A stretch of DNA of 64,000 bases, taken from NCBI GenBank assembly GCA_003135555.1, contig PLCF01000053.1:30131-94130 (forward strand). The letters run 5' to 3'. Numbering within the stretch: position 1 is the stretch's first letter; each line of letters opens with the position of its first letter. The notes beneath the pieces were generated by a model. It saw only the letters and a program-made list of their open reading frames with translations, did not search any database and was not told the origin of the DNA. Source of the stretch: Vulcanimicrobiota bacterium (lineage in GTDB: Bacteria; Vulcanimicrobiota; Vulcanimicrobiia; Vulcanimicrobiales; Vulcanimicrobiaceae). The position numbers and the translations under genes are program-made. Below, in pieces: positions 36,469-43,195 of this stretch.

Positions 36469-37557
36469 CTAGGGCACCACGCTGGTGGCGATGCGTGACA
36501 GCTCGCGCAGATCCAAGTCGCCGACGAGCGCGAACGAGAGCCCCTGCTCGCGCCATGAAAGCAGCGTCGTGGGGCCGTCGCGCACGTATTTCGCATCGTG
36601 GTCTTCGAAGCGGGTCGACTGCACGTGCATGCCGCCGAAGTCGATCGCCTTGCCGGTCGCGTTCTCGAAGAGCGACATGGTGCGCAGCCCGTCCGAGTAG
36701 ATGAGGTGCAGGTTGCGCACACCTTTCACGACCGTGACGTCGGCGCCGCTCAGGACGAAGCCGTCAGGAAGATACTTCGGCTTGATCGGTTTGAAGCCGG
36801 CATCCGGAACGGTGTTCGGTATCGTCTTGAGTTCCTGGTAGCTGCGGCCGGAGATGGCCCGATAGCCGTGCGGGATCGCCGACGTGAAGAGCGACTGCGG
36901 GATGCCGTCGGTATAGCGAATGTCGTCGAAGCGGGTGCGCCAGGCCGGCGAGCCGTCGCTGTGGTACGCCTCTTTGGCCAGCACGACGTGCGTTTGCTGG
37001 TCGATCCACAGCCGCATCGTGCGCTCGCCGGTGTAGCGGCTCACGAGGTCGACCACGTCGGCCCGGCGGTTGGCAACGTCGTCGGAAGCGCTGCGCACGG
37101 CGCGATAGTTCGCGTCGACCAGTGCGATGTCGTCGACCACCGCGACCGGGTCGACGGCGGCCTTGTTTTCGGTGACGACGACGCGCTTGCGCTCGGGATC
37201 GAAATCCCACGATTTCGCCCCCCGGCTCACGACGTACTGACCGTACAGCGAGCGCGGCGTGAGATAGGTGCGGCGCGTCTCGTCCGGAGCGCGGTGCTCG
37301 ATCTTGGAGAGGACCGCGGAGGCGCGGTTCGTCCCGCTGCGGATGGTGAGCTGTTGGCCGACGAACGAGACGTGCTTGGGCGCGGCGACCGCGGCGACGA
37401 TGAGCGGCCGGGCGTCGCTGCCGGGCGAGAGCGGCGCCGGCGCGGCGGCAAACACGGACGACGGAGCGGTGCGCGGGGCGGGCGTTGCAGCACTCCCGGG
37501 CAGCGCGCTCAACGTCAAAAACGCGAGAGCGAGGAACCCGGGGCTAGTGTACTGCAC
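36469..37557 (-). CDS. RseB/MucB-like (LolA-fold) exported sigma-regulatory protein
   Basis: Signal peptide, LWIDQQT.VVL, PKYLPDGF, LIYSDGL..MSLFE; follows the anti-sigma gene. Confidence 0.75.
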   Translation of the reverse strand: MQYTSPGFLALAFLTLSALPGSAATPAPRTAPSSVFAAAPAPLSPGSDARPLIVAAVAAPKHVSFVGQQLTIRSGTNRASAVLSKIEHRAPDETRRTYLTPRSLYGQYVVSRGAKSWDFDPERKRVVVTENKAAVDPVAVVDDIALVDANYRAVRSASDDVANRRADVVDLVSRYTGERTMRLWIDQQTHVVLAKEAYHSDGSPAWRTRFDDIRYTDGIPQSLFTSAIPHGYRAISGRSYQELKTIPNTVPDAGFKPIKPKYLPDGFVLSGADVTVVKGVRNLHLIYSDGLRTMSLFENATGKAIDFGGMHVQSTRFEDHDAKYVRDGPTTLLSWREQGLSFALVGDLDLRELSRIATSVVP

Positions 37558-38077
37558 CGGCGGCGTCGTCGAGGGTGGCGGCGTCGGCGGTGTCGATGTA
37601 GGCGGCGGCCGAGGACGCGCGATCCTGCGAGTCGGCGCTGTAGACCGCGGGCGAAGCCCCCGGCCCGAACGGGTTCTGCTGGGTCTGCGCGTTGTGCTCG
37701 TCGAGGTAGAACGCGGCCTCGATCCCGGGTGCCGGCGGGCGCGTCAAAACCGGCGTACCGAAGTACGCGGCCAGCGCGACGGCGGCCGCGACCGGGACGG
37801 CGACGCGCGGGCCCCAGATCGTGCGCAGTCGCTCCGTCCAGGACGGCTTCTCGCGCCGCAGGGCATCCCACACGCGCGCCTTGACGAGCGAGGGGAGCTC
37901 CAGCTCTTCGGCGCGCGCGGCGGCGCGCAGCGCCTCGCCCAGCGCCGCCTCTTCGTCGTAGACGCCGTTGCACGCCGCGCAGCCTCGAAGGTGCGCAAAA
38001 GCGGAAGCGTCGGCGTCGGGCGTGAGCGCGCCGTGCAAGTAGTCGATCAGGGTTTCGCGGTCGTAATGCGTGGTCAT
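37544..38077 (-). CDS. zinc-finger (HxxxCxxC) membrane anti-sigma factor
   Basis: LIDYLHGAL...HLRGCAAC, one TM segment; coupled to the sigma gene. Confidence 0.85.
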   Translation of the reverse strand: MTTHYDRETLIDYLHGALTPDADASAFAHLRGCAACNGVYDEEAALGEALRAAARAEELELPSLVKARVWDALRREKPSWTERLRTIWGPRVAVPVAAAVALAAYFGTPVLTRPPAPGIEAAFYLDEHNAQTQQNPFGPGASPAVYSADSQDRASSAAAYIDTADAATLDDAAGAVH

Positions 38078-38643
38078 CGTTGTTCCTGTTGCGCCCTGGT
38101 CACCAGCCGTCGGAGCAGCGCCCGAGCGCGGTGAAGCCGCGAACGAACCGTTCCGATCGAACATCCCATGATGTCGGCGATCTCCTGGTAGCTGTACTCC
38201 TCAATGTCGGCGAGAATGACCACTTGACGTTGCTCCGGGGAGAGCTGTGCGAGCGCCCGTGAAAGCGGCTCCCCCAGTTGCCCCGAGACGTAGTCCTCGA
38301 TGGGATCGACCGCCAGCGGCCGCTGCCCAGCGTACTCCTGCGGAGCGTTGTCTTCCGGTATCTCCTCCTGGAAACGCCCTTTTCGCCGCCGAAGTTCATC
38401 CCGATACAGGTTCGTGACGATTCGGTAGATCCAGGAGAGGAACGAGGTGCCTGGTTGGAACGAGTGCCACGCCCGGTAGACGCGGATGTAGGCGTCCTGC
38501 GTCAGGTCGCGAGCATCCGCCTCGTTCCCGGTGAGCCGGAAGGCGAAGTTGTACGTCGCCTTGCCGTACTGGGTCATCGCCTGCTCGAGGAAAGCCGACG
38601 CTTCGGGCGTGGCCGGCTCGATCGGCTTTCGCGGGACCCCCAT
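38074..38643 (-). CDS. ECF RNA polymerase sigma factor
   Basis: DARDLTQDAYIR, SWIYRIVTN, SYQEIA..MGCSIGTVRSRLHRAR. Confidence 0.95.
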   Translation of the reverse strand: MGVPRKPIEPATPEASAFLEQAMTQYGKATYNFAFRLTGNEADARDLTQDAYIRVYRAWHSFQPGTSFLSWIYRIVTNLYRDELRRRKGRFQEEIPEDNAPQEYAGQRPLAVDPIEDYVSGQLGEPLSRALAQLSPEQRQVVILADIEEYSYQEIADIMGCSIGTVRSRLHRARALLRRLVTRAQQEQR

Positions 38644-39605: not shown

Positions 39606-40010
39606 GTGCGGACGATATGGATGGTCCAGGACGAGGCAGACCGGGTTTTGCGCCAGCGCCGCTCGTTCCGCGACTGCGTGGCCGCGCTGGCCGAGCCCGC
39701 CTCCGACGTTTCCGGTGCCGAGCTCATCTACGGTGAGCTGGTCGGCAACACGGTACGCTACGCGGCCGGGCCGGTCGAGGTGCGGCTCGAGGTCCACAAC
39801 GGCGACGCGCCGGTGTTGACGGTGCGCGACCACGGCCCAGGGCTGCACTGCCACCCCTGGACCCCGCGCCGCGACCCCTACGCGGAGTCCGGACGCGGCT
39901 TGGGGATCGTCGAGCTGCTGGCGCGCGCCGTCGCCGTCGACCGGCCCAGCGATGGCGGCACCCTCATCCGCGCCGTCCTACCGGTGACGCCGCGGGCGAA
40001 GGTCGCGTAA
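39606..40010 (+). CDS. RsbW-like ATP-binding protein (HATPase_c_2)
   Basis: ELVGNTVRYA, VRDHGPG, ESGRGLGIV. Confidence 0.85.
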   Translation: MRTIWMVQDEADRVLRQRRSFRDCVAALAEPASDVSGAELIYGELVGNTVRYAAGPVEVRLEVHNGDAPVLTVRDHGPGLHCHPWTPRRDPYAESGRGLGIVELLARAVAVDRPSDGGTLIRAVLPVTPRAKVA

Positions 40011-40021
40011 CGCCGAGCCGC

Positions 40022-42379
40022 CTAGCGTTCGAGCCGATAGTTCAACTCCACCGATCGCGGGCGCGCGATGTGGTTTCCTTGCGCGTTCGCGAACGTCACG
40101 AAGTAGCGGTCGTCGAAGAGGTTGCGCACGCGCAGCGCGACCGCGCCCTTGCCGAGCGGCACGCCTTTTTCGACGTCGAAGGTGAGGTGCGGGGCAACTT
40201 TGCAGGCGCCCGACCCGAGACCGGTACGCGGATCCGGCGGGCAGTACCGGTTGAAGAAACCGGTCGAAACGTCCGACGGTGCGGTGGTGAGCCCGCTGCC
40301 GTACTCCCCGCTCGCTGAAAACCAGCCGTTGTGCCGATCGTTTATCAACAGGCCTGCGTTGGCGTCCCAGCGTTCGTCGTGATCGGCCGGCGTCCAGTCC
40401 GCCGCGGGGCCGCCGGCGCACGGCGCGAGCAACGCCGTTTCGCAGTTCTTCACCACGGCATAGGTATGCGCGAGCGACCAATAGACGCGGCCGCCGCGCT
40501 CGAGCGGGCGCTGATAGGCCATGCTTTGGGTGCCGATGCGTCCGAGTGCGAAGTTGATGTCCTGGTGCAGGTTCGTCGTCCCCACCTGGGTGTCGTCGAT
40601 GAGGTCGGTGGCGTTTTTCTGCGCGATCCGAACGCCGAGATCGCCGCGCCCCAGCGCGATGTGTCCGCCGAGCTCGTAGTCGGAGTCGCGTTGCGGCCGC
40701 AGGTCGAAACCGCCGCTGGTGGGCTGGATGACCCGCGCCACGGACGGTGAGACGTTTTCGAGCGAGAACGGCGTGAAAAAGCGGCCGTAGTAGACGTAGA
40801 GGCTGGCCGTCTGCCCGAACGAGCGGGTGAGCTTGAGCCGCGGGCTGAGCTGCGAGAACCCGTTCGCGAACTCCAGCGAGGCCAAGATGAACACGTCGGC
40901 GCGCAGACCGTAGTCCAAGCGCCACGCCGGTCCCATGCGCCAGCTGTCTTGCAGGTAACCCTCCGCGAGGTGGCCGGTATTGGGAGCGTTGTCGACGACG
41001 TTGAACGCCAGGGTTGAAAACGGGTTCGACGGCTGCAGCCCGATCGCGTAGCGCTTCGTCACGGTCGTCACGTCGTAGACGGCCCCGGCGCGCACCTCGT
41101 GGGCCGCGCTGCGCAGATCGTAGTCGGCGTTGAGCCGGTAGTCGATCGAGGTCCGGTCCGAGAACAGCGACAGCGCACAGGTGGTGACGTCGCCGCTGCA
41201 GTCGGCGGTTCCGCCGTTCGCGATCCCCGCGGCGAAGTCGTTGGCGGGGTCGGGGAAGTCACGGATGTGCGAGCGTTTGAGCGACGGCCCGAACGAGAAT
41301 GCGCCGCGATCACCGATGGCGCGCCTGAACTGGACCGATGCGAACAGATCGTCTTGCTTTTCGACGTCGTCGCGCCGGGCGGGCTCGCCCGCCCCGATGT
41401 CGGGCGGAATCTGATAGGTCTGCAGCGTGTGGGACAGCGTGAAGTTGGCGAACGAGGCGGCGCCGTAGGGAAGCGAGAGGCGCACGAACTGATTCGCGCT
41501 GCTGCCGGCGTCGTGCGGTGCGTCCGCCGAGGCCGGATCGAGGGCGCGGCCGTCGCGGCCCGTGCGCGAGGCGAGCAACAGCGAGCCGCCGTGTCCGACC
41601 GGCGCGTGATAGCCCAGGGTCATCTCGTAGCGCGCATACGCGCCGCTCGTGGCATCGAAGGTGAAGCCGGGCGGACCGGGCGTGCCGCCGCGCGTGGCGA
41701 GGTTCAGAACGGCGCCGAAGCGTTCGCCGTATTGCGCCGGGTACGCGCCCTCGAGTACCTCGGCGAATCCGACGTTGCTCGCGTCGACCTCGTTGCCGAT
41801 GACGCGGTTGAGCGCTTGTGGTAACGCCACCCCGTCGACGATGTAGTTGATGTCTCCGTGGTCGCCGTTGACGTGAACCACGCCGTTGGCGCCCCGCGCC
41901 GCGCCGGGGACCTGTAACAGCATCCCCGGGAAACTGTCGGCGGCGGGCGCGCGCGCGATCGTCTCGGTATTGAGCGTCACGTCGGTACCGGCGCGGCGCG
42001 CCTGCGTCGCGTGCGACACGACCGAGGTCGCGGTACGGCCGATCGCCCGAATCGCTTTGAGCTGCAAGTTGACGCTTTCGCCGTTGGAGGCGACGTCGAC
42101 GTCGACCGCAGCGCTGAGCGTTCCGCTCGCACCCGCGAGCGTGTAGCGCCCCAACGGGACGGCGCTGAAGGCGAACGCGCCGTGCGCGTCCGTCGTGGTC
42201 TCACGATGGAGCGTCGCGCCGTTGAGCTGCACGGCGGCCCCCGCGACGGCCTGACCGTTGGCGGTGACGACCCCCGAGACGAACGACGTGGCTTGCGCGC
42301 GAGCGGCGGTGCTCGTGATGAGGATAATGGCGATGAACAAGGCGAGCGACCGAAGCGGCGCGCCGAAACGACTGAACAT
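40022..42379 (-). CDS. TonB-dependent outer-membrane receptor with N-terminal carboxypeptidase-regulatory-like domain
   Basis: Signal peptide, plug YIVDGV / GAYPAQYG..FGAVLN, SPRL, NLFDDRY...PRSV C-terminus. Confidence 0.88.
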   Translation of the reverse strand: MFSRFGAPLRSLALFIAIILITSTAARAQATSFVSGVVTANGQAVAGAAVQLNGATLHRETTTDAHGAFAFSAVPLGRYTLAGASGTLSAAVDVDVASNGESVNLQLKAIRAIGRTATSVVSHATQARRAGTDVTLNTETIARAPAADSFPGMLLQVPGAARGANGVVHVNGDHGDINYIVDGVALPQALNRVIGNEVDASNVGFAEVLEGAYPAQYGERFGAVLNLATRGGTPGPPGFTFDATSGAYARYEMTLGYHAPVGHGGSLLLASRTGRDGRALDPASADAPHDAGSSANQFVRLSLPYGAASFANFTLSHTLQTYQIPPDIGAGEPARRDDVEKQDDLFASVQFRRAIGDRGAFSFGPSLKRSHIRDFPDPANDFAAGIANGGTADCSGDVTTCALSLFSDRTSIDYRLNADYDLRSAAHEVRAGAVYDVTTVTKRYAIGLQPSNPFSTLAFNVVDNAPNTGHLAEGYLQDSWRMGPAWRLDYGLRADVFILASLEFANGFSQLSPRLKLTRSFGQTASLYVYYGRFFTPFSLENVSPSVARVIQPTSGGFDLRPQRDSDYELGGHIALGRGDLGVRIAQKNATDLIDDTQVGTTNLHQDINFALGRIGTQSMAYQRPLERGGRVYWSLAHTYAVVKNCETALLAPCAGGPAADWTPADHDERWDANAGLLINDRHNGWFSASGEYGSGLTTAPSDVSTGFFNRYCPPDPRTGLGSGACKVAPHLTFDVEKGVPLGKGAVALRVRNLFDDRYFVTFANAQGNHIARPRSVELNYRLER

Positions 42380-42429
42380 GATTCCCTTCGCTACTGTGAC
42401 GTGAGGACGTGCGCGCTAGGCGCACGGGG

Positions 42430-42996
42430 TCAGGTAGCGAGCGGTGGGGGCGGGCGGTTCGGGACGAAGAGCCGGTAGGGAACCGTGGCTTGCGCGGGCC
42501 GCGCGACGAGGCGGCGCAAGGCCGGCGGTCGCGTCGTGTCGGCGACCGCCGCGACGAGCGCGGCGAGCAAGGCGACGACGCGCTCGCGCGTGGCGCGGAA
42601 CAGCAGCGTCGCACACAGCAGGGCGACGAGCCCACAGAACAGGGCGACCAGCAACCGCTCGGGCTCGAGCGCGGCGCCTTCGGCGGCCAACAGCAAGGCC
42701 GCGACGGCGGCTTGGCTCAGCGCCGCGAAGCCGGCCTGCCCAAGGGTGAGCGGCCCGAGCCCGGCCCGCACCAGCGCCAGCCGGCGGCGGCGCTCGCGGC
42801 GTGATCCGACGAGACCCAGCGGTGCGGCGACCGCGGCCAGCAAGCCCAGGGCGGCGACGAGCATGACGAGGTGCGCCGGCGAATCCCACACGAATGCCCG
42901 GGCGCCGACCGCATGGACGACGCCGTGGACCAGCACGGCGCTCGAGAACGTCAGGGCGGCCCACAGGGCGTACGCCGCTCGACGCTGGGGAGACAT
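42430..42996 (-). CDS. membrane protein ending in NRPPP; candidate ribosome-arrest leader of the TonB receptor
   Basis: Several TM segments, His residues, C-terminal VPNRPPPPLAT; stop lies 50 nt before the receptor ATG. Confidence 0.7.
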   Translation of the reverse strand: MSPQRRAAYALWAALTFSSAVLVHGVVHAVGARAFVWDSPAHLVMLVAALGLLAAVAAPLGLVGSRRERRRRLALVRAGLGPLTLGQAGFAALSQAAVAALLLAAEGAALEPERLLVALFCGLVALLCATLLFRATRERVVALLAALVAAVADTTRPPALRRLVARPAQATVPYRLFVPNRPPPPLAT

Positions 42997-43195
42997 GTAC
43001 GGATTCTTCCGTACGCCGCTCTCCGACCCTGCCCATAGGCCGCCGGGCCGCCACCGCCGGGCGCCGGGCGGCGTCCTGGGGATACTAGCCGGACCGGGAC
43101 GCCGGCGCAGAGGGGCATCGGGTCGCCGCGACAGGTGCCGGCGCGGGCCCGGTCATATCCAACGTCCCCCCACCCGTCGCCCCATCGAGAAAGCC

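Follow-up and report, generated by a model that had tools for sequence, protein, structure and literature searches.

Why does a gene for a polytopic membrane protein end in an R-P-P-P motif just ahead of the gene for a TonB-dependent receptor? The question arises on the minus strand of a 64,000-nucleotide (nt) stretch of DNA from a Vulcanimicrobiota bacterium (assembly GCA_003135555.1, contig PLCF01000053.1, positions 30,131 to 94,130), which as a whole is called the window below. Here a gene that we call the leader (P0001, 42430..42996) encodes a 188-residue polytopic membrane protein with the C-terminus NRPPPPLAT, and the receptor gene (P0002, 40022..42379) follows on the same strand. A preliminary description, made from the letters alone, had suggested that a ribosome stalled at RPPP would melt an RNA stem over the receptor's ribosome-binding site and so permit translation of the receptor. 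Having compared the locus with its relatives across the phylum, we think it probable that the leader is a RAPP-like arrest peptide that exposes the receptor's ribosome-binding site, with the leader's membrane domain tuning the pause. The comparative tests support the arrest-leader reading; the stall itself, its ligand and the direction of control are what we infer from them.

Both genes look real. The leader open reading frame (ORF) begins with ATG, runs for 188 codons and ends in ...YRLFVPNRPPPPLAT-TGA, with the stop codon at 42430-42432, and, as had been described, a spacer of 50 nt separates this stop from the receptor ATG (42377-42379), whose context is GAAGGGA-N4-ATG. Its GC content at the three codon positions (0.81/0.57/0.89) is coding-like and follows the pattern of real genes in this window of 68.6% GC; this composition, the conservation of the protein and a confident AlphaFold2 model (both below) rule out a spurious ORF. 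The receptor, of 785 residues, combines a signal peptide with CarboxypepD_reg, plug and barrel domains. In Pfam, the barrel (PF00593) scores 36.4 bits against a cut-off of 27 and CarboxypepD_reg 37.5 bits against 32.3; Plug, at 19.9 bits, falls under its cut-off of 23.9, which several orthologues pass. By sequence, then, P0002 has the plug and 22-strand barrel domain of a TonB-dependent receptor. A sequence search of the PDB with P0002 gave no match.

We compared 58 non-redundant loci with a complete 3' end, drawn from 68 that were fetched and representing about 21 genera; left out were seven loci that repeated a genomic place already represented, three copies truncated at the end of a contig and a single frameshifted piece. 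The motif arginine is present in 58/58 loci, through five different codons, and both motif prolines are likewise present in all 58, each using all four of its codons, so that the conservation of RxPP anticipated by the preliminary description was borne out. The residue at x is proline in 50 loci, alanine in 6 and glycine in 2. Because the codons vary synonymously, the comparison indicates that selection acts on the R-x-P-P peptide rather than on the nucleotides. The flanks vary: the residue before the motif is asparagine in 37/58 loci, position +4 holds 13 different residues, and the peptide that follows the motif is not conserved. A 15-sequence alignment (28-74% identity) has just four invariant columns, R72, R181, P183 and P184, the last three belonging to a conserved C-terminal peptide, Y174-RLFVPN-R181-P182-P183-P184 (42445..42477, minus strand), with the R-x-P-P core at 42445-42456.

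The same motif recurs in a wider sample that was not selected for it. Among 1.84 billion cluster representatives, 148 match the leader profile, and 130 of these carry R[PAGS]PP within their last 45 residues (101 RPPP, 20 RAPP, 7 RGPP and 2 RSPP). The motif lies 2-13 residues before the stop in almost all members and 4 residues before it in P0001. Such an ending is rare in the host genome, where R[AGP]PP occurs in the last 16 residues of 3 of 3110 coding-like ORFs; the other two (on contigs C94 and C96) are a GNAT-like cytoplasmic protein and a 57-residue ORF, both unconvincing as arrest candidates. Mutagenesis of the arrest peptides ApdA and ApdP found the arginine irreplaceable, the change of alanine to glycine fully permissive and changes of alanine to proline, serine or aspartate partly permissive, and random-library screens also gave RxPP with x = G, A, S or P (PMC12992588). 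The residues that the leaders carry at x (P/A/G/S) agree with this arrest-permissive set. Given the toeprints on RAPP-like peptides (PMC12992588), a stall would be expected to hold the codon of Pro183 in the P site and that of Pro184 in the A site. Judged by sequence, the leader also has further hallmarks of the RAPP-like class: a motif near the stop, an arginine that is essential as far as conservation tells, N-terminal membrane helices and a co-directional downstream gene whose SD is predicted to pair with codons at the expected stall site.

What would a pause at this place do? The codons after the motif are complementary to the region around the receptor's Shine-Dalgarno sequence (SD, the term also used above). 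The pairings named in the preliminary description are exact complements (TCGCTAC at 42434-42440 with GTAGCGA at 42388-42394, and TGAC at 42429-42432 with GTCA at 42397-42400), and all of them appear in the minimum free energy (MFE) fold of positions 42370-42460, which has an energy of -29.3 kcal/mol (z = -2.44; 2 of 200 shuffles were at least as stable) and contains all three stems. The 5' side, the anti-SD region in the leader's last codons (42429..42450), comprises CCC at 42448-42450, TCGCTAC and, including the stop, TGAC; the MFE fold adds a pairing of the SD GGG with the CCC codon of Pro183. The 3' arms (42383..42400) comprise GUCA and GUAGCGA, and the latter (42388-42394) overlaps the receptor SD GAAGGGA (42383-42389), as had been noted. 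Between them the spacer holds a GC-rich inner hairpin, CGUGCGC-CUAGC-GCGCACG (42408..42426), found in the MFE and the alignment-based folds, which extends beyond the earlier description to 7 bp (42420-42426 with 42408-42414). RNAalifold on 8 relatives gave the same three stems. A MAFFT alignment of 14 spacers misregistered tails of three and four codons; we therefore relied on this 8-sequence fold and on energy-based comparisons of own and cross-locus pairing instead.

Complementarity between tail and SD is kept across the family with sequences that differ by clade. Where the window has TCGCTAC/GTAGCGA, for example, locus L014 has TCCTTCGC/GCGAAGGA, L044 has ACTCCTAGC/GCTAGGAGT, L054 has GTCCCCTT/AAGGGGAC and L066 has AAACTCCA/TGGAGTTT. 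In 57 loci we computed the duplex between the tail (+9 to +36 from the Arg codon) and the SD window (-35 to +6 from the receptor start). The mean energy was -19.6 kcal/mol with the SD of the same locus, compared with a median of -13.7 with that of another locus, and the own pairing was the better one in 55/57 loci. Three control windows of equal length taken upstream of the motif gave no such advantage (own better in 30, 25 and 28 of 57), so the covariation that the preliminary description had asked for is present. With a narrower SD window, the energies were -16.6 for own and -11.9 for cross-locus duplexes. In partition-function folds of the 57 loci, the probability that the SD window is paired averages 0.71, and a median of 85% of its partners lie at +9 to +36. 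The motif and the pairing, conserved and co-varying across about 21 genera, exceed what chance would be expected to give.

The position of the anti-SD points to the motif as its reference. Measured from the Arg codon, its centre has a median position of +18.7 nt (interquartile range (IQR) 12.6-21.3), and measured from the stop one of -8 nt, with a spread (standard deviation) of 14.4 nt around the former and 25.6 nt around the latter. In six loci whose stop lies 42-126 nt past the Arg codon, the anti-SD is still found at +18 to +23.5. By this comparison the anti-SD is anchored to the motif, not to the stop codon. A ribosome's footprint usually extends about 15-16 nt 3' of the P-site codon, so a ribosome stalled on the motif would cover roughly -6 to +22 from the Arg codon. 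At least five paired anti-SD nucleotides fall within this span in 48/57 loci, compared with 48% in cross-locus and 41% in shuffled-SD controls. Comparison across loci thus places the anti-SD under a ribosome that would be stalled on RxPP.

Some loci have further features in this region. In L017, L020 and L050 (genomes G019, G016 and G010) the leader ORF runs about 35-38 codons beyond RxPP, across the receptor SD and start codon; the anti-SD there sits 21 to 23.5 nt past the Arg codon, and continued translation of the leader would cross the receptor start. Most homologous loci have a GC-rich hairpin in the spacer. In L065, L047, L043 and L036 a T-run follows it (GCGCGCG-TTTTTTT in L065), resembling an intrinsic terminator, and in these four attenuation may act alongside SD masking or in its place. 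A terminator scan found no terminator-like site in the window spacer, where no U-tract follows the inner hairpin; two terminator-like sites inside the leader ORF we regard as chance.

The leader and the receptor travel together. A receptor homologue starts 56-240 nt past the Arg codon in 57/58 loci. In the exception (L015/L084, contig C19 of G010), the leader ends NRPPPTFA-stop and precedes a 315-residue secreted protein without a Pfam family, and the complementarity of tail and SD is retained despite the non-receptor downstream gene. We conclude that leader and receptor form a real, conserved regulatory unit.

What kind of protein carries the motif? A protein search gave 115 relatives, and those with a named source are labelled Candidatus Eremiobacteraeota or Ca. 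Elarobacter, bar one labelled Dongiaceae; NCBI taxonomy places Ca. Elarobacter in Vulcanimicrobiota (= Eremiobacterota). In a whole-genome profile search the family was found in 49/301 genomes and 21/100 genera of the phylum (44/206 genomes of taxonomic family f1, 4/22 of f3 and none in other families), a tally of 49 that counts one unpublished genome, G251, used nowhere else. No Pfam or NCBIfam model matches the leader, with no family at E <= 0.1 for P0001, and 0/15 diverse members match the Pfam model of DUF2946 even at E <= 10. A weak ESM Atlas lead to DUF6412 (score 0.81) was not confirmed by Pfam scanning; the ESM Atlas matches were otherwise unnamed clusters from the same phylum only.

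An AlphaFold2 model built on a 101-sequence alignment has a mean predicted local distance difference test score (pLDDT) of 80.8, and about 75-96 over residues 1-130. It predicts helices at residues 3-31, 40-60, 66-80 (a cytoplasmic ERRRR helix), 85-105 and 112-151, among them four membrane helices (TM1-TM4), in keeping with the polytopic protein first described, and a disordered tail at 152-188. A Foldseek search of the PDB, the only structure library used, gave no solved fold at E <= 0.001. Positive-inside charges and the model together suggest an N-in/C-in topology. The putative sensor domain (residues 1-151; 42544..42996, minus strand) combines the four membrane helices with conserved polar residues. 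Counted in 101 diverse members (mean column identity 27%; an alignment selected so as to include the motif), the positions conserved best elsewhere in the protein are H24 (99/101), H42 (99/101), E106 (100/101) and G107 (92/101). Position 28 is E in 77, H in 13 and D in 10, a potential metal ligand throughout, and the Q95 column holds Q, N, E or H in 97/101. In the model these residues (H24, H/E/D28, H42, Q95 and E106-G107) would lie near the periplasmic ends of TM1-TM3. The clade of the window has H-G-V-V-H and a Glu-rich TM3-TM4 loop without cysteine. The absence of CxxC remarked on in the preliminary description holds for P0001 but not for the family: E-G-C-x-x-C(-G-H-D) occurs in the TM3-TM4 loop of 14/148 representatives and at 18/50 loci. 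A median of 50 residues separates the end of TM4 from the motif Arg (IQR 49-51), across a linker whose own sequence is poorly conserved; this constant spacing fits a mechanical or tunnel-length coupling.

The neighbouring genes offer a hint about a ligand. We surveyed 8 kb on either side of 50 loci, some cut by contig ends, by tblastn with a panel of queries taken from L070, L072 and L073. The usual unit is leader and receptor alone, often with a convergent next gene. A Fur-family gene is found at 8/50 loci, immediately adjacent in 7 of the 8, a ZnuA/ABC-3-type metal importer at 5/50 and Nramp at 13/50; at least one of the three occurs at 20/50 loci. The host genome (3.57 Mb) has about two Fur-like and three Nramp-like genes, with no ZnuA/ABC-3 gene detected, and because it has so few Fur-like and Nramp-like genes, chance adjacency would account for a few per cent. 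The conserved His and Glu residues (with Cys in relatives) and these neighbours point, at moderate strength, to a divalent metal such as Zn or Mn as the signal.

These observations suggest the following mechanism. In the free mRNA, as folding and comparison indicate, the receptor SD would be paired with the CCC codon of Pro183 and the L-A-T-stop codons. A ribosome paused on RPPP would cover the anti-SD, reaching from some 6 nt 5' of the Arg codon to some 22 nt 3' of it, and the freed SD would let a second ribosome initiate the TonB-dependent receptor, as the geometry and the precedents of CutF and SecM suggest. At the pause the four-helix membrane domain would already be outside the ribosome, where it may set how long the pause lasts. 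The least supported steps are those that give the direction: that a metal-free chain would stay arrested, so that receptor is made, and that packing induced by metal would pull on the chain, release the arrest and let the SD stem re-form. This logic, in which arrest and receptor synthesis go with metal scarcity and binding brings release, resembles that of CruR, and we favor it as the most likely direction because the controlled gene encodes an uptake receptor and the genes nearby are importers of the starvation type. A ligand-induced stall of the CutF kind may operate instead. More tentatively, and with more doubt than confidence, we propose that the nascent four-helix leader is a transmembrane sensor of Zn or Mn, not Cu, in which binding at His24, His/Glu28, His42 and Glu106 releases the RPPP arrest and closes the SD stem. 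It would then be the first metal-sensing arrest peptide that is neither copper-responsive nor of DUF2946, and one of a superfamily of polytopic RxPP leaders controlling each CarboxypepD_reg TonB receptor paralogue in Eremiobacterota.

Other readings would account for parts of this pattern. Under plain translational coupling, the leader would be an ordinary inner-membrane protein that works with the receptor, the pairing of tail and SD would do no more than tie receptor translation to that of the leader, since the stem would open to every ribosome that passes or terminates, and RPPP would be a slow spot or a structural motif without regulated arrest. Such a partner could well be long, well folded (pLDDT 80.8) and conserved over its full length, all beyond the needs of a minimal leader; the anti-SD lies within a few codons of the stop in most loci (median -8 nt); and elongation factor P (EF-P), the usual reliever of polyproline pauses, is encoded in the host genome. 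Coupling, however, needs neither an invariant R-x-P-P with x restricted to P/A/G/S nor a constant 50-residue spacing to TM4, and it leaves unexplained why the anti-SD stays beside the motif where the stop lies 42-126 nt further on, including in the three leaders that overrun the receptor start. We judge it unlikely, yet worth keeping in view. The N-in/C-in polytopic architecture and the constant distance from TM4 to the motif would also suit a force-only monitoring substrate (as SecM, MifM or ApcA), whose intrinsic arrest is released by membrane insertion and which reports Sec/YidC capacity or membrane energisation and would adjust output of an outer-membrane protein to match, and Sec/YidC-linked RAPP peptides provide a precedent. 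Here, however, no Sec or YidC component is encoded downstream, conservation beyond the motif is strongest at polar His/Glu(/Cys) positions on helix ends rather than at hydrophobic insertion determinants, and metal-homeostasis genes lie near some loci, which together leave this reading decidedly unlikely.

The stalled ribosome could instead act mainly by blocking Rho-dependent termination or polarity, with SD pairing secondary. CruR is reported to act in this way for a TonB transporter, and a receptor mRNA left untranslated would be exposed to Rho anyway. The spacer, however, is just 50 nt long, folded and without a terminator-like site, and the feature that co-varies is the sequestration of the SD; we consider control of this kind very unlikely at the present locus. 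Finally, RxPP might serve the mature protein for docking or sorting, with the SD complementarity a by-product of proline codons (CCN CCN), which are intrinsically anti-SD-like: controls do put 41-48% of best duplexes at the motif region. Against this, the own-locus advantage resides in variable tail codons and co-varies with each SD, the rules for motif residues agree with arrest mutagenesis (PMC12992588), and beyond the motif the tail shows no conservation at the peptide level. We give the docking reading hardly any credence.

Several points nevertheless weigh against an arrest leader that senses metal. Stalling is inferred throughout, and a check of sequencing runs for the locus listed none from RNA or Ribo-seq. 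Eighteen of the 148 representatives lack the motif, most of them being fragments or frameshifted, and in two, P0220 and P0238, L-P-P-P-R-L-L stands in place of R-P-P-P. RPPP was only partly permissive in ApdA and ApdP (PMC12992588), and the EF-P of the host bears on any polyproline pause. The leader is large, well folded and conserved throughout, so that a function of its own as a mature protein is possible. On the RNA side, covariation within the genus is thin, with double changes at 2/14 consensus pairs in 8 sequences; 9/57 loci have no clear anti-SD in the stall footprint; masking the stall span in silico cuts SD pairing only from about 0.70 to 0.55; and the loci share descent, so the counts overstate their independence. 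As for the metal, three of the panel queries derive from loci that they then matched, NCBIfam does not separate Zn from Mn (the AztC and MntC models both scored below their cut-offs), and around the window locus itself, out to 8.3 kb, there is neither a Fur nor a Znu nor an Nramp gene. Apart from this weighing, P0220 and P0238 stand as natural variants without the Arg.

How does the leader compare with known systems? RAPP-like upstream ORFs (uORFs) before TonB receptors, polytopic ones included, are a published class, and each single feature of our locus has a precedent. Fujiwara et al. (2025) found RAPP/RGPP uORFs enriched before TonB-dependent receptors and metal genes, and verified seven Streptomyces (S.) lividans peptides in vitro, four with four membrane helices and some with a conserved His; arrest can differ from species to species (PMC12992588). 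That survey extracted RAPP and RGPP only, from GTDB proteomes, and its TonB-linked uORF proteins almost all bear signal peptides (PMC12992588). The leader family differs in being dominated by RPPP (101 of the 130 motif-bearing representatives) and so lies outside the RAPP/RGPP survey. The four-helix RAPP proteins of actinobacteria (PMC12992588 supplement) resemble the leader in TM1 by eye.

Two DUF2946 proteins come close in design. CutF of Rhodobacter capsulatus, which regulates cutO, shares with the leader a C-terminal PPP stall a few codons before the stop and a sensor facing the periplasm; unlike the leader it is a secreted protein that has a signal peptide, binds copper at a CxxxC site and controls a multicopper oxidase (bioRxiv 10.1101/2025.02.05.636593). 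The leader, for its part, has four membrane helices, no DUF2946 match, no Cys motif in the window copy and a TonB-dependent receptor as its target. CruR of Bordetella pertussis, the uORF of bfrG, is similar in having R-x-P-P near its C-terminus, a place directly before a TonB transporter gene and a link to metal. Its arrest at the third and fourth codons was shown by toeprinting (PMC12992588), and copper is reported to relieve the RAPP arrest, whereupon Rho terminates. CruR differs from the leader in its reported Rho-dependent termination, RAPP, CXXC, a signal peptide rather than four helices and a different protein family. P0001 itself has none of the marks of the DUF2946 group, namely the Pfam match, a Sec signal peptide with one soluble periplasmic domain, and CxxC/CxxxC.

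SecM, MifM and VemP likewise arrest near the C-terminus (with a RAGP/RAPP-like motif in SecM), open by the stalled ribosome a stem that hides an SD and are released by pulling force (bioRxiv 10.1101/2025.02.05.636593). Their targets are SecA, YidC2 and SecDF, whereas the leader precedes an outer-membrane receptor and has a polar cluster that suggests a ligand. The gene downstream of the leader, a TonB-dependent receptor rather than SecA, SecDF or YidC, sets it apart from Sec/YidC monitors. In literature searches on arrest peptides in Eremiobacterota/Vulcanimicrobiota and on stalling with TonB and zinc, we found nothing on the leader family, with the published uORF list only partly searchable. 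The new family proposed at the outset therefore stands in one respect, that no Pfam or NCBIfam model, DUF2946 included, matches it, and not in another, since the class is published and a probable homologous sister family is already in the published uORF list. What is new, judged by sequence comparison, is a family outside DUF2946 that has no model, its mostly RPPP core, a polytopic leader before a TonB receptor, a phylum new for the class, and the comparative placement of the anti-SD under the stall site.

The sister family is found in the same genus. Ahead of the host genome's only other receptor paralogue (29% identity, contig C8) stands a polytopic leader of another kind, rich in His and Cys (locus L118, contig C8, 630-3629, minus strand), and in this assembly the second leader and receptor read through as a 999-residue ORF; RAPPVVR-stop lies in another frame of this fusion, which is either an assembly indel or a real frameshift. 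The second family comprises proteins of 203-238 residues that end in ...RRRPSRAPPxx(x)-stop in 11/11 same-genus relatives, with RAPP 2-3 residues (6-9 nt) before the stop; either their A-P-P codons or their tail is complementary to the SD that follows. It thus resembles the window leader in being polytopic, in its RxPP near the stop, in an anti-SD at the motif or tail and in preceding a CarboxypepD_reg TonB receptor, and differs in its canonical RAPP rather than RPPP and its conserved Cys37 and Cys67-Pro68. A member from an Eremiobacterota metagenome-assembled genome is row 5204 of the published RAPP uORF list, in the part of it that could be searched, given as 'hypothetical protein' upstream of 'TonB-dependent receptor' (PMC12992588). 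HMMER with the window-leader profile misses the second family and has a single match in the host genome. A profile-profile comparison of the two families gave a probability of 79.8% (E 1.5e-5, 148 columns), a score that low-complexity membrane sequence may inflate; it suggests that they are distant homologues.

The surroundings of the window locus have features of their own. Immediately 5' of the leader ATG lies a hairpin, GUACGGA-AGAA-UCCGUAC (42997..43014, minus strand), with SD-like bases GGAA that fall partly in the loop and partly at the 3' end of the 5' arm; the element GTCCGGAAcAATnCGGAC is kept in 12 of the 14 same-genus loci listed, and both arms are changed in L001, the window copy. 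About 85 nt upstream of the leader, a conserved GGCTAGTAY box (43081-43090, minus strand) resembles a -10 element, and a promoter scan of the locus found no sigma-70-like promoter. The hairpin and the box may present the leader's own ribosome-binding site or act as an operator. The neighbours at the window locus are a divergent YmdB gene and a convergent HATPase_c_2 (anti-sigma-kinase-like) gene (39606-40010, plus strand), the latter convergent with the receptor and syntenic within the genus. P0004 (38702-39727, minus strand) is a coding-like ORF of 341 residues without a Pfam family; because its 5' end reaches about 120 nt into the convergent HATPase gene, its true start probably lies further downstream. 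Beyond it, on the minus strand, follow genes for an extracytoplasmic function (ECF) sigma factor (38074-38643), a zf-HC2 anti-sigma factor (37544-38164) and a MucB/RseB-like protein (36469-37557).

RAPP-like arrest peptides that control non-secretion genes are a class recognised only recently, and the leader widens it. Added to the class are a protein family new to it, an RPPP core of the kind overlooked by surveys restricted to particular motifs, and a little-studied phylum known mainly from metagenomes. An anti-SD that would lie under the stalled ribosome and that co-varies with the SD across about 21 genera makes for an unusually clean, testable design. If the His/Glu(/Cys) cluster does sense metal, nascent polytopic membrane proteins would be able to act as periplasmic metal sensors for uptake receptors, and this sensing would help to assign a substrate to the large uncharacterised group of CarboxypepD_reg TonB receptors.

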